From assembly GCA_964016885.1 (NCBI GenBank), contig OZ024740.1, positions 302,746,001-302,810,000 of the forward strand: a stretch of DNA of 64,000 nucleotides, given 5' to 3'. The notes below the pieces were generated by a model. It did no database searches and was not told where the DNA came from. It saw only the letters and a list, made by a program, of their open reading frames with translations. Every line of letters starts with the position of its first letter. Within the stretch, counting starts at the first letter, position 1. The translations under genes and the position numbers were made by a program. This stretch comes from Eledone cirrhosa (taxonomy: Eukaryota). Shown here in pieces: positions 1,127-61,160 of this stretch.

Positions 1127-1175
1127 GTTTCAGAAGATCCCGTTAAGGGTGAAAGCAGCGATTCTTTGCTTAAAC
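1127..1175 (+). ncRNA. Hammerhead ribozyme motif, family C (core variant CAGAAGA)
   Basis: Stem I GUUU/AAAC; core CAGAAGA; stem II U-CCC-GUUAA-GGG-U; GAAA; stem III AGCA/UGCU; triplet CUU; AATAAA follows before the (TA)n tract. Confidence 0.65.
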
Positions 1176-1568
1176 ATTAATCTGTTATTTTAATAAATAT
1201 ATATATATATATATATATATATATATATATATATATATATATATATATATATATATATATATATATATATATATATATATATATATATATATATATATAT
1301 GTGTGTGTGTGTCCCTATATGTATTTTGCATCTAGGGATACATACCTTATTATTATTAATCTCCCCTGGTCGAGATAACATTTTGGTCGTGTTAACTGCT
1401 GCTATTTCTAGTGGCAATAGATTGACCTTTCCGCCTCTGCCTTCTATCTTTATACACGGCACTAGACAGAATTGCTTCTTCATCATACACTCTCATCTCG
1501 GGAACAATTTTGAATGGCGCCAGTTCGTGATTTGAACTCGGGAATTTTATATTCTCCGAGCGAAAAGA

Positions 1569-1653
1569 ACCCTCTGACGAAAGTCTTCCTTTTCAATGGA
1601 TTTCCGTATGGATTATCCATTTATTTCGAGACTTGAAACCGTACGGTAAGGGT
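1569..1653 (+). ncRNA. Type I hammerhead ribozyme with extended stem II
   Basis: Stem I ACCCU/AGGGU; CUGACGA 1574-1580; stem II AAGUCUU/GAGACUU enclosing an AAUGGAU/AUCCAUU hairpin; GAAA 1635-1638; palindromic stem III ACCGUACGGU; cleavage after GUA at 1648. Confidence 0.88.
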
Positions 1654-1904
1654 AATTACAGCAGGTAGAGTGAACTTTTTAAAATTCATTTATTTTAAAA
1701 CTTTTTCTTATTTGCTAAACCTTGATTATATATATATATATATATATATATATATATATATATATACAGAGAGAGAGATACATGTGTGTATGTATGTGTG
1801 TATGTATGTGTGTATATATATATATTAGAATGTATTTTAAAATATTTAAAACATACAAACTTGAACTCAATAGATACTCAATACATAGGTATGTATGTCT
1901 GTAT

Positions 1905-2180
1905 GTGACCCAATCAACTGTGGCCCTGGTACCAAATAAAATAGGTGATGTACGAAACTGTGGCCTTGTTATCTAATGATATAGATGACCCAATCAATTT
2001 TGGCCCTTGTACCTCATACCATAGGTGATATAATCAACTGTTTCCCAGGTACTTAATAACATAGGTGATATAACTAACTGTGGTCTTGGTACCTAATAAA
2101 ATAGGTGAACCAATCAACTGTATCCCTAGTACTTAATAACATAGATGATCCAATCAACTGTGACACTGGTATGTAATAAA
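1905..2180. repeat. Minisatellite, about 40-bp unit, about 7 copies
   Basis: Repeated CAATCAACTGTGGCCCTGGTACCTAATAA(A/C)ATAGGTGA-like units. Confidence 0.85.
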
Positions 2181-2387
2181 AAAGACATTTCTTATTAAGC
2201 TTAGAGGGTAGAGGGGATGAAGTCATTTTATCTAAGTTGAGATTTCTGTACTGTTTTAATTCCCTTTTTAAATATATTTCAAATGTTTAAACATCGACTT
2301 CCTCTCGTTAAGTCATAAAACTGCAACCCTATTTCGATTTATAAGAATCGAGAGGAAAATATACAATAGAGTTCAATTTAAGGACTA

Positions 2388-2866
2388 CTAGCAGAAAACC
2401 ACCCGAGGTGTGGTTTTCTGCTAGTATGTGTAGTGTGCATATTGATATTATACGCAAATATAATATACATATAGACATGATACATCAAATGAAATCGTAA
2501 TTGACAATATCCACAGAAATTGAACGAAGTCTGCGTTACACTGTCTTATGTAATCAGTAAAGTAATCCATGATACATTAAATAAAGACGATATTATATAT
2601 AAACTGCATTAGGAAAAAAATTAGTGACGGAAATATATGAATGTTGTTATAAGCGATTGCTAACCGGAAGTGTTAACATTTGAAAATTTTAAAGAAGTGA
2701 ATCTTAAAATAAGCAACAAAATTATTTATATTTAATCAAGAATAACGAAATTCAGTAGATAAATTATGTAATATTCTTTCATTATCTATTCAAAGTAATC
2801 CAACTTATTTTACATAAAATATATTCTGAACGCAATCCCGCACTCCTTTCTTTATTATAGTTAAGA
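2388..2866 (-). mobile_element. Non-autonomous Helitron-like element, copy 1
   Basis: On the minus strand it starts TCTTAACTATAATAAAG and ends CTAG, between A and T, with terminal hairpin ACTAGCAGAAAACCAC/GTGGTTTTCTGCTAGT. Second copy at 22925-23668. Confidence 0.7.
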
Positions 2867-2959
2867 TACTGTTTAGTTTTTCAAAAGGGTCAGTGAGCAA
2901 AGTTGTTGTAAAATTTTATTCATGGGCTCAAATTTGCTGGTATTATTTAGATGCATTTC

Positions 2960-3180
2960 AGCGGTGGGTTGGCAGTATCGGTAGAGTGTCGGAGACCATG
3001 CTTTGCAGCATAGAGTTACGGTCCTTTACGGTTCGAGTTCAAAGCTGCCGAGGTTAACTTTGCCTTTCATCCTTACGGGGTCGATAGAATATAGCACCAG
3101 TAACGTACTGGGGTCGATTGAATCGTCTTTCCCTTCCCCCCAAATTACTGGCCTTGTGCCTATAGTAGAAATCATTATTT
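2960..3180 (+). mobile_element. tRNA-derived SINE (family 1)
   Basis: A-box-like TGGCAGTATCGG, B-box-like GAGTTCAAA, body CCGAGGTTAACTTTGCCTTTCATCCTTACGGGGTCGAT, tail GGCCTTGTGCC...AGAAA; more than 10 copies in the window. Confidence 0.85.
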
Positions 3181-3190
3181 AGTTGCATTT

Positions 3191-3412
3191 GAGTGGTGGA
3201 TTGGCAGTATCGGTAGTGCGTCGGACAACATGCTTTGTGGCATTGAGTTCCATCCCTTACGTTCTGACTTTTAAATTCAGCCGAGGTTAGCTTTGCATTT
3301 CATTCATGCGGGGTCGATAAATAAAGTACCAGTAACGCACTGATTTTAATTTAGTAGCCTTTCCCCTCCCCAAAATTGTTTGGCCTTGTGCCTCAATCAG
3401 AAACCATTATTT
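3191..3412 (+). mobile_element. tRNA-derived SINE (family 1), tandem second copy (a third decayed copy follows to about 3580)
   Basis: Same motifs as 2960-3180. Confidence 0.82.
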
Positions 3413-58492: not shown

Positions 58493-58585
58493 ACGTGTCT
58501 GAGGAACTTGCGAATCTAGAGTCAGGTTCGATCCACAAACAGATCGCACCTCGAACTGTTCGCTGGAGAAACAATTGTAATACGT
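58493..58585 (+). ncRNA. Type I hammerhead ribozyme with 62-nt stem II region
   Basis: Stem I ACGUGU/AUACGU; CUGAGGA; GCGAA/UUCGC and CGAUC/GAUCG helices; GAAA 58568-58571; palindromic stem III ACAAUUGU; triplet GUA; AATAAA at 58586; upstream hairpin 58444-58485. Confidence 0.78.
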
Positions 58586-58815
58586 AATAAATTGTGTTCC
58601 GATGGATCACTGATTCTTCTTTTTCCATATTATATATATATATATATATATATATATATATATATATATATATATATATATATACACACACATGTGTGTG
58701 AGTACAGATACATAGATAGGCATGGATATACCTGCATGGGATATTTTCTGATAGCTTTTTCCATATACCAGTATACCACGACTCACTACTACTTTTCCTC
58801 CACTATTGTCTCCGA

Positions 58816-58852
58816 TTATCTGATGAACAACTAGTGGCCGAAACGTTAAGAC
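58816..58852 (+). ncRNA. Degenerate hammerhead, family D
   Basis: CUGAUGA-A-CAAC-UAGU-GGCC-GAAACGUU-AAGAC; core intact, stems I and II damaged. Confidence 0.45.
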
Positions 58853-59144
58853 ACTTTTCCAACCATATCAAGCGTAAAACTAATAATACATTTCTTCGTG
58901 GTTCTGTCTCGTTTGCTATGCCATTTCTATTTGTCTTTTGCATATATATATATATTTATATATATATATATGTGTGTGTGTGTGTGTGTGTGTGTGTGTG
59001 TGTGTGTGTGTGTGTGTATGTGTGTGTGTGTGTGTGTGTGTGTGTGTGTGTGTGTGTGTGTGTGTGTGTGTGTGTGTGTGTGTGTGTGTGTGTGCGTGCG
59101 TGCGTGTGTGCGTGTGTGTGTGTGTAGGTGAGGTGTGTGGGAGA

Positions 59145-59405
59145 GTCCCGGGCTCAATCTGAGGTAACTACAGTTAGTAAGGTACTCAGTACATTAATAG
59201 AGTGTAAACATCAAGTTTAATAAGGAAATGGCTTCCACAGGACTAGAAGTGTTTCATACAAAAGAAATCATCACTCTTTCCTGATCATTTCTTTTGAAAC
59301 TGTTTAATCTTATAGAAGCTATTTCTATATTAAACTTGATGTTTACACTCTACTAATGTATTGAGTACCTCACTAACTGTGATAACCCACTACTGCACCC
59401 GAGAC
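59145..59405. mobile_element. Old family B fold-back with two near full-length arms
   Basis: Imperfect palindrome of about 125-bp arms centred at about 59275; a further fragment at 59540-59582. Confidence 0.75.
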
Positions 59406-59605
59406 TATCTAGCACACACACACACATATATATATATATATATATATATATATATATATATATATATATATATAGGTGTGTGTGTGTGCGTTGGTATGTG
59501 TGTGTGTTTGTGTGTGCAGCTGTGTATATATATTTTGTTAAACAGTTTACTCCTGTAGAATCCATTTCTATATTAAACTTTGTATATATATATATATATA
59601 TATAT

Positions 59606-59797
59606 AAGAAAAAGTATGACCCCGACGGTAGAGCTCAAGCCGTTTCGACGGCTATTTCTGGACGGCTATTTCGACGGCTATTTCAGTCCAGAAATAGCCG
59701 TCGAAACGGCTTGAGCTCTGCCGTCGGGGTCATACTTCCTCTTATTTCCCACTCAACTACCCTAAGTATTGAGTACTCTGGTGCGTTATGGTCCATG
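59606..59797 (+). mobile_element. Family A fold-back mini-element with triplicated GACGGCTATTTC at the centre
   Basis: GACGGCTATTTCTG-GACGGCTATTTC-GACGGCTATTTC-AGTCCAGAAATAGCCGTC. Confidence 0.85.
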
Positions 59798-60257
59798 ATG
59801 GTGCGTTATGTACTTAATCAAGACGAATTATTTCACAAGCAGGAATTTCCGTTGATTGTGACAACTGAAGCAGTCGTCGTCATAGATGATGAAGGTCCAA
59901 CACTCACGTACAGTTATACATATACAGTTATACTGACATACAGTTATAAATATGAATTATATATATATATATATATATATATATATATATATATATATAT
60001 ATATATATATATATATATTTATTTATTTATTTATCTATTTATATATATAAATGTATATATATACATTTATATATATATATATATATATCTATACATATCT
60101 ATCTATCTGTCTCTCTCTCTCTCTATATATATATATATATATGTATGTATGTACGCGTGTATATATATGTGTGTGTGTGTATGTATATATATATGTATAT
60201 ATGTATATATATATTTATATTAATATATTTATATTTATATTTATATAGATATAAGTT

Positions 60258-60683
60258 TACCCCGGGTTCAATCGGGGTAACCACAGTAAGTAAAAGGTAC
60301 TCAATACATAGCAGAGTATAAATATTTAATATACAAATGGCTTCTACAGGACTAGAACTGTCTTATTCGGGAGAAATCCTGATGATTTCTCCCGAATGAA
60401 AGAGTTCTAGTCCTGTAGAAGCCATTTCTATAATATATATATATATATATATATATATATATATATATATATATATATATATATATATATATATATATAT
60501 ATATATATATATATATATATTATATATATATATATAATATAGAAATAGCTTCTACAGGACTAGAACTCTTTCATTCGGGAGAAATCATCAGCATTTGTCC
60601 CGAATAAGACAGTTCTAGTCCTGTAGAAGCCATTTGTATATTAAATATTTATACTCTGCTATGTATTGAGTACCTCTTACTTA
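60258..60683. mobile_element. Two family B fold-backs (60258-60432, 60537-60683) forming a higher-order inverted repeat around (TA)n
   Basis: Both share private changes GAACTGTCTTATTC and GAAAGAG in mirror positions. Confidence 0.85.
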
Positions 60684-60957
60684 TATATACTTAGGGATAC
60701 AACAATTGCTAAAACGTACAAATAAGGGGCTTAATCAAGTTATTTCATTTATTTTCCACACACTGTGCGGAATTATAATTTGTATGTTTTCTCCTCAGCT
60801 CCAAAGTATATATCTTCTTGACATTCATTAAAAAAATAACCACCTTATTACTAATATTACTATATATACATATATATATATATATATATATATATATATA
60901 TATATATATATATATATATATATATATATATATATATATATATATATATATAAGATA

Positions 60958-61160
60958 TTCCGGGTTCAATCGGGGGTAACCACAATAAGTAACGTACTCA
61001 ATACATAACAGAGTATAAATGTTTTAATATAGAAAAGCTTCTACAGAACTAGAACCGTTTCATTCGTGAGAAATCATCAGGAGCTTCCTGATGATTTCTC
61101 ACGAATAAACAGTTGAAGTTTTTCTATATTAAAATATATTGAAGTTTTTCTATATTAAAA
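60958..61160 (-). mobile_element. Family B fold-back mini-element
   Basis: GAAATCATCAGGA-gct-TCCTGATGATTTC centre at about 61084; minus arm carries a complete core and tail. Confidence 0.8.

Follow-up and report, generated by a model that had tools for sequence, protein, structure and literature searches.

A 64,000-nucleotide stretch of the Eledone cirrhosa genome (assembly GCA_964016885.1, contig OZ024740.1, positions 302,746,001 to 302,810,000; hereafter the window) carries a series of short palindromic islands set in (TA)n tracts, each built of two head-to-head arms with an extra segment, the tail, on one side. The islands are no separate kind of element; they are the leader ends of Penelope-like elements (PLEs), and in families A and B their arms stop at a common wall that coincides with a promoter-like site. 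We consider it probable that the islands, referred to below as stubs, are the shortest insertions of autonomous PLEs, made when each strand of a (TA)n target, once nicked, primes a complementary DNA (cDNA), both cDNAs run off the capped 5' end of the RNA and the two are joined head to head. A sequence-only reading of the window had distinguished five families, A to E, of hammerhead-bearing mini-retroelements. Its proposal of 5'-truncated PLE products with an inverted copy in microsatellites is upheld by parents with an open reading frame (ORF) for A, B, C, D and probably E. Its alternative, separate non-autonomous mini-retroelements, is contradicted by junctions that vary from copy to copy and by gradation into kilobase-long copies.

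Penelope-like parents of the islands

Exact searches of the genome (3.0 Gb) returned 35,401 matches to a 32-letter pattern from the A tail and 12,082 to a 30-letter pattern from the B tail, with 0 for the reversed controls. The A parent was found as a tandem array of four 3531-bp units with a 717-amino-acid ORF beginning 231 nt past the wall, and the B leader runs into a 713-amino-acid ORF whose product is 50% identical to the A protein; both ORFs are intact and lie elsewhere in the genome. The endonuclease part of A gave 73,811 first-look candidates, and several of the 150 that were scored had 784-codon open frames. Both translations carry DKT, RWR (not RWK), a CxCx5C linker, and CxxC and CxH around the E/N, with no CCHH. 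A YRDD reverse transcriptase (RT) motif and a GIY-YIG-like motif were recognised by eye; the Pfam matches were weak (GIY-YIG in B at E 0.012, none in A), and the best homologue of the A protein carries PF01541. Among 7996 sequences scored, 2049 are related to the A protein at E ≤1e-20, nearly all of them unnamed, and a PDB search with this protein gave 0 matches.

These features, together with insertion into (TA)n, match the parents of A and B to the Hydra clade, which PMC8557442 (Craig et al. 2021) characterises by a C-terminal GIY-YIG, DKT, RW[K/R], the CxCx5C linker, CxxC and CxH around the E/N, no CCHH, a hammerhead and a (TA)n target. The clade includes Hydra-1_Obim, which appears in the supplement of PMC8557442 and resembles the A and B proteins by eye. 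For C, the arm at 880-1200 is part of a single insertion that also includes a Hydra-type fragment (3-719) and, immediately beyond the left edge of the window, a tailed arm; the fragment shows the linker and CxxC. By these sequence features A, B and C are classed as the leader ends, hammerhead plus tail, of Hydra-type PLEs. More generally, the hallmarks of endonuclease-bearing (EN+) PLEs are present: a single ORF with RT and GIY-YIG, a full or partial tandem with a pseudo-long terminal repeat (pLTR), an inverted 5'-truncated copy with a one-sided tail, and a hammerhead motif in the pLTR.

D and E, which had been taken for singletons, both belong to multi-copy families. All 40 of the D matches scored, among 1653 candidates, were positive, and a 27-mer upstream of D had 997 exact matches and 2 in the opposite orientation. 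In most of 10 fetched loci D lies about 300 nt downstream of an ORF with RVT_1 (E 7e-11) and GIY-YIG (E 6e-6), matches that lie above or near the cut-off. This ORF carries DKG and CCHH, and BLASTP shows no relationship to A; judged by these domains, D is a canonical RT plus GIY-YIG PLE and not Hydra. For E, 11 arm matches were found in the window and fetched loci. Two loci (L132 and L195) have E downstream of a Hydra-type ORF, across 1.7-4 kb of AT-rich sequence, and this tblastn link suggests that E probably belongs to another Hydra-type family. At L132:2179-6337 about 4 kb of microsatellite-rich sequence separates the Hydra-type ORF from the E hammerhead, which may be an unusually long 3' region.

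Contigs from sequencing run X1, which may be the source sample, include the B element over 849 nt, with 6 differences, and a single contig in which opposite strands are joined within the leader; their summed depth, which gives no copy number, is concentrated on the leader. The element was not found in runs X2, X16, X17 and X20; X15, guessed to be RNA, gave diverged pieces, and the search, made with a microsatellite-rich query, had no RNA run among the matches listed. At C1:83679793-83691714, twelve B leader matches lie on one strand at a spacing of about 1.07-1.1 kb, too short for the full ORF; this array is possibly a retrozyme-like non-autonomous derivative.

No hammerhead was among the 150 of 729 Rfam matches listed, which were microsatellite-driven microRNA (miRNA) matches, and the ribozyme calls therefore rest on inspection of motif and pairing. 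The A parent combines a U3-A8 core with stem I, a long stem II and a stem III of 5 bp whose loop is palindromic, and the predicted fold contains the three stems. The 5' half of the ribozyme is missing from short A copies, which begin in loop II. The core is canonical in B, U4A in C and a minimal motif in D; the hammerhead-like motif of E is degenerate, with about 140 nt in stem II. Predicted folds suggest that B, C and D would not reach the active form unaided. The design that the sequence-only reading ascribed to all five families thus holds for the two-armed islands in (TA)n and fails for the CUGANGA hammerhead of short A copies, which lack that core and have lost the U3-A8 variant of their parent. 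The (TA)n setting itself is borne out, with (TA)4 or longer 3' of 107/111 A tails and 75/91 B tails (555/5000 in random 60-nt windows).

Tails measure about 68-135 nt in A, B, C and E and about 45 nt in D. In the tails of A, B, C and E, inspection by eye shows a common hairpin with a pyrimidine bulge of 2 nt, 5-8 nt beyond the tail-less end. The hairpin was predicted in full for E and in part for A and C, and is absent from the lowest-energy B fold; a similar bulged hairpin occurs in the end of the coral element Hydra-2_Amil.

A common stopping site at a promoter-like motif

We scored junctions in all tail-bearing copies from loci not selected by junction (111 A and 92 B, with a scorable second arm in 75 and 55). 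Arms stop at a rate of 0.003-0.012 per nt over +60 to +11, rising to 0.056 (A) and 0.072 (B) at +5 to -4; upstream of -20 the rate is 0.003 (A) and 0.0014 (B) per nt. Among tail arms that reach +10, 63/75 in A and 46/59 in B end between +10 and -8, against 7.9 and 6.1 expected from the rate over +11 to +60. Single-armed B copies meet (TA)n at 0 to +2 (L321, L331, L351 and window position 39743). In B, arms seldom stop within the hammerhead and run through all of it, halting at its first nucleotide. Stem I begins at position +1 in B and C; in A, this position falls within loop II. Its location would explain why palindromes are centred on the ribozyme. That the centres would be non-random relative to the ribozyme had been foreseen; the A centre, assigned earlier to an inferred stem II, lies in its loop.

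The base at +1 is A, in what we take to be an initiator-like context, and a TATA-like box starts at -29 in A and -30 in B. Directly before +1, B junctions often carry an additional G. Genome-wide, this base is G in 594 B matches and A, C or T in 1888; the first 100 of the latter listed comprise 95 C, the parental base, 3 A and 2 T, which scales to about 57 A and 38 T. In 18/30 B arms with G, from 15 insertions, the base is templated neither by the parent nor by the opposite arm, and three insertions have G on both arms. In C, G stands at 5/5 non-parental junctions. An untemplated 5' G in L1 has been taken as a possible copy of the cap (PMC9341517), the Penelope pLTR of D. virilis contains an internal promoter (PMC2377424), and a TATA and initiator pair has been noted in a rotifer pLTR (PMC3846280). 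In A and B the wall is likely the capped start of the element RNA and not a stall at the ribozyme.

Formation of the two-armed insertions

The two-armed layout extends to insertions of several kilobases. We mapped the 13 long A loci that showed both arms among 18 fetched, keeping the reference array separate; L174, L175, L178, L181 and L188 were excluded, and four older loci aligned only partly. In 13/13, one arm ends at +140 and the other at +60/+63 (12 loci) or +38 (1 locus). The insertions thus have two fixed outer ends, +60 and +140 in A and about +66 and +134 in B. Of the 13 long A copies, 6 bear the tail on the shorter arm and 4 on the longer, and in 3 the arms are equal within 16 nt. 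In short B copies the tail-less arm reaches further in 29/55, the tailed arm in 12/55, and the two agree within 2 nt in 14/55; the corresponding counts for A are 27, 21 and 27 (near-equal), blurred by overruns across stem II. Tails on shorter arms in long A and longer tail-less arms in short B are a better fit to two separately primed cDNAs.

At subfamily-variable sites the arms of an insertion agreed in 23/29 and 30/36 comparisons in B (shuffled maxima 12 and 21) and in 29/38 and 35/53 in A (21 and 18), most mismatches in both families being single changes. This fits a model in which both arms derive from one RNA, or later conversion between them. A long arm of family D near position 1490 of L382 has its 5' end at the ORF start codon and is joined to the other arm through short microhomology.

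These data allow us to propose a mechanism. RNA starting at the internal promoter of the element would carry the tail in its leader; at each of the two tail borders a nicked (TA)n target strand would prime reverse transcription; the two cDNAs would run off the capped RNA 5' end after about 60 and 140 nt, and microhomology or end joining would then link them head to head. RNAs that read on to a tail further downstream would give rise to the long copies. The capped transcription start, the two nicks priming two cDNAs and the joining of the ends are the parts of this scheme that we infer. A PLE protein has been seen in vitro to nick and extend both strands from two internal sites bordering the tail (PMC11167929). 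We are evenly divided over a more specific version, in which most insertions would be a retroviral-like strong-stop product integrated twice, a dimeric protein priming both target strands on one capped mRNA at two sites dictated by the conserved bulged tail hairpin. Each stub would then record the promoter, the cap and both start sites, and the hammerhead would act on read-through RNA only, as the A mRNA would start inside the ribozyme and could not cleave.

Several observations weigh against initiation at the wall or against our account of the arms. C, D and E have no clear TATA box at -30, the wall was measured in A and B only, and the evidence for an RNA start consists of motifs and the G. 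Of the B arms with G, 12/30 may be templated by the other arm, and A shows a slight preference for G (15 G, 10 T, 9 C, 4 A; n=38), which the opposite arm often supplies. The A wall abuts an inverted repeat, which blurs mapping and could itself favour junctions, and 15 A tail-arm ends called at -7 are alignment overruns. The D centre coincides with a self-complementary AGCT, some 35 nt 5' of the core, and may reflect microhomology only. Concordance of the arms could be gene conversion, the 3/13 nearly symmetric long copies suit a fold-back, and the sampled loci lie for the most part within the initial 45 Mb of a single contig and possibly include segmental duplicates. Finally, the cleavage site of A has 7 tail-arm ends no more than 2 nt away where 2.4 would be expected (uncorrected P 0.013), and these may be a minor class from self-cleaved RNA.

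That excess is what speaks for hammerhead self-cleavage setting the RNA 5' end reached by the arms. As the main route this is refuted, and we regard it as extremely improbable: B shows no excess at its cleavage site (2 ends, 2.2 expected), the site is 41-45 nt downstream of the main wall, and cleavage is dispensable in vitro (PMC11167929). The sequence-only reading had instead proposed that RT stalls at the folded hammerhead and a single cDNA snaps back and copies itself. Centres at or in the ribozyme in A, B, C and E, 1-5 nt of microhomology at many junctions, variants common to the arms of one insertion and the nearly symmetric long copies all accord with this, and self-priming, on an antisense template, has been proposed for the inverted copy and its palindromes (PMC3846280). 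The model is nevertheless unlikely. B arms halt at the 5' edge of the ribozyme after crossing all of it, single-armed copies halt at the same wall, the extra G is present, the A wall is in loop II, and in B stubs the tail-less arm is frequently the longer. In L182 and L187, moreover, the tail is on the shorter arm and both arms are shorter than one unit, which excludes a folded-back cDNA, as the copy would outreach its template or hold a tail absent from it.

Later shrinkage of long palindromic insertions by central deletion, leaving short stable hairpins, would draw on the instability of long DNA palindromes, and both several-kilobase palindromes and stubs with internal deletions between short repeats are present. 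It leaves unexplained the sharp wall at a promoter-like site, the G, the single-armed stubs ending at the wall and the near-identical young stubs, and we hold it to be very unlikely. We give marginally less credence still to non-autonomous master elements, like short interspersed elements (SINEs) or miniature inverted-repeat transposable elements (MITEs), that would move as a hairpin of fixed form. One junction and fixed ends are indeed shared by the 30 best B matches and by most of 20 D loci, but these were selected by the query; in tail-selected samples the junctions differ among copies, the common B junction is seen in either orientation and in different subfamilies (L240, L262, L327), and copies grade into full elements. 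A DNA-transposon MITE with fixed terminal inverted repeats was rejected, since the one-sided tail leaves no such repeats, the centre varies, and copies are continuous with RT ORFs. Both flanks of the stubs, where a target-site duplication would lie, are (TA)n. We likewise rejected a non-LTR retrozyme, as copies in the window are head-to-head or single and not head-to-tail and the ribozyme of short A copies is missing its 5' half, and rolling-hairpin resolution, suggested by a flip/flop of the B loop (4/30) that is explained by which arm is 3 nt longer.

The islands of the window and their published relatives

A hairpin scan confirmed the palindromes of the window and the centres first noted for them at 17257, 61084, 7853, 51991 and 48475.5, with perfect arms of 63 bp at 17257 and 199 bp at 51991, and also recovered a series of A-type hairpins. 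The stubs identified are collected in the table below. BLAST with the parent leaders supports the first counts approximately: of 12 copies given for A, 9 are two-armed by BLAST, 1 is diverged with partial matches (32754-32925) and 2 diverged islands (44550-44690, 49822-49948) were found by eye; of 7 given for B, BLAST recovered 6, among them a single-armed stub and a two-tailed one, and inspection by eye added a 50-nt fragment near 59530. Family C had been placed at 7783-7888 only, and further copies lie at 880-1200 and 52409-52583, with a fragment at 57157. The original coordinates of C, D and E omitted the tails, which reach 7716, 48708 and 51649, respectively.

PLE insertions in the window, with coordinates in window positions
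Feature	Position	Strand or tail	Remarks
Family C, right part of long two-armed insertion crossing the left edge of the window	3..1200		tblastn 55% to A protein; self-match with tailed arm in left-neighbouring stretch
Hydra-type ORF fragment of that C insertion	3-719	-	
Tail-less arm of that C insertion	about 720-1200	+	
Family C stub	7716..7888	tailed arm - (7716-7850); short arm +	short arm from +1 with extra G
Family A stub	9485..9659	tail -	
Family A stub	10874..11048		sequence and flanks same as 9485-9659; local duplication inside TA satellite
Young family B stub	17194..17388	tail-less arm 17194-17259 (-); tailed arm 17255-17388 (+)	both arms begin near +1
Family A stub	27473..27673	tail +	
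Diverged A-like two-armed stub	32754..32925		hairpin scan, partial BLAST matches
Family A stub	38648..38855	tail -	
Single-armed family B stub	39743..39875	+	meets (TA)n at about +2
Family A stub	41160..41361	tail +	
Old diverged A-like island	44550..44690		by eye, without alignment
Family D stub (canonical RT + GIY-YIG PLE)	48288..48708		arms meet at self-complementary AGCT; minimal hammerhead per arm; tail 48664-48708
Family A stub	49024..49210	tail +	
Diverged A-like single arm with tail	49822..49948	-	by eye
Family E stub	51649..52198	tailed arm - (51649-51985); tail-less arm + (to 52198)	
Family A stub	52215..52410	tail -	
Family C pieces	52409..52583		inverted arrangement
Family A stub	52712..52913	tail -	
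Older B-type stub	59148..59387		tails on both arms
Family A stub	59604..59796		tail partly lost
Family B stub	60262..60435	tail -	
Family B stub	60535..60683	partial tail +	
Family B stub	60952..61160	tail -	centre 61084

The two identical A stubs lie 1389 bp apart in a degenerate TA satellite of 10 kb (7906-17828), and this array therefore expanded after the insertion. Stubs of different families adjoin in a single (TA)n tract at L286, L297, L173 and window 52215-52913, which indicates that such tracts act as repeated landing sites. Rare insertions have a tail on both arms (L292, two in L316, window 59148-59387, L210/L211). Further islands between (TA)n with hairpins, CUGANGA or tail-like motifs, at 44776-45089, 50330-50420, 51261-51420 and 53078-53323, are probably more PLE families. 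The window also holds tandem repeats of 40 bp (1906-2181) and 232 bp (2942-3416). Directly after (TACA)n, the segment 61458-63863 contains a 728-codon open frame (61677-63863) with RVT_1 (E 7e-24), a zinc knuckle and, by eye, a restriction-like endonuclease (RLE) motif; it is presumably a 5'-truncated RLE-type non-LTR element. We rejected this frame as the mobiliser of the stubs, as it is unrelated to their tails and the true parents were found elsewhere.

The element class and the layout are known, the families are new, and what is added here is the common stop of the stubs at a promoter-like site. The sequence-only reading knew of no description of the ribozyme-centred geometry; published work already covers its components, namely the inverted copy plus tail, the palindromes at junctions, the preference of Hydra for (TA)n and hammerhead pairs on opposite strands. 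An inverted 5'-truncated copy with a one-sided tail is the established EN+ PLE layout (PMC8557442, legend to Fig. 2; PMC3846280), and the stubs share its head-to-head arms, one-arm tail and palindrome at the junction; here, however, the tails are longer than the published 30-40 bp and the junctions pile up at one site. Compared with the described Hydra families, generally <3 kb, the A unit is larger at 3.5 kb, RWR replaces RWK, variant cores occur (U3-A8 in A, U4A in C) and copies number tens of thousands. Stubs ending at one promoter-like site are not described in the accessible parts of PMC8557442, and our literature search, in which subscription papers were thinly covered, found no description of PLE stubs ending at a capped start.

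Minimal PLE hammerheads, including opposite-strand pairs 100-700 bp apart, were reported in PMC4209133. As there, dispersed truncated PLE ends here carry ribozymes, D has the minimal form and a U3-A8 variant is described; A, B and C differ in having a full stem III, and centres are not mapped in the available part of that paper. Non-LTR retrozymes (10.64898/2026.07.22.740005) are also hammerhead-bearing, PLE-derived and non-coding, but form head-to-tail tandem units, in contrast to head-to-head stubs with variable junctions. The closest biochemical parallel is Poseidon from Anolis (PAc), for which PMC11167929 reports two internal RT starts bordering the tail, nicking and extension of both strands in vitro and a dispensable hammerhead; PAc belongs to another clade, and the accessible sections contain no inverted junction or capped-start run-off. 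A likeness to L1 also exists, in the untemplated G that marks the RNA 5' end (PMC9341517) and in inversions from two primed cDNAs.

In L1 twin priming, the two primed cDNAs that yield an inversion cover different parts of the RNA, whereas the cDNAs here overlap and form a palindrome. For annotation, there is a risk that hairpin PLE stubs are called MITEs, miRNA precursors or two-ribozyme devices. How inverted, tailed PLE insertions form is described as unresolved in PMC8557442 and PMC11167929. At least 47,000 copies with a tail, from two families whose ORFs are intact, are present in the genome, and their ends give a testable cycle of two starts, run-off from the capped RNA end and head-to-head joining. 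If most insertions are indeed strong-stop products integrated twice, the inverted repeat, the tail and the tandem requirement of PLEs would be explained in one cycle.

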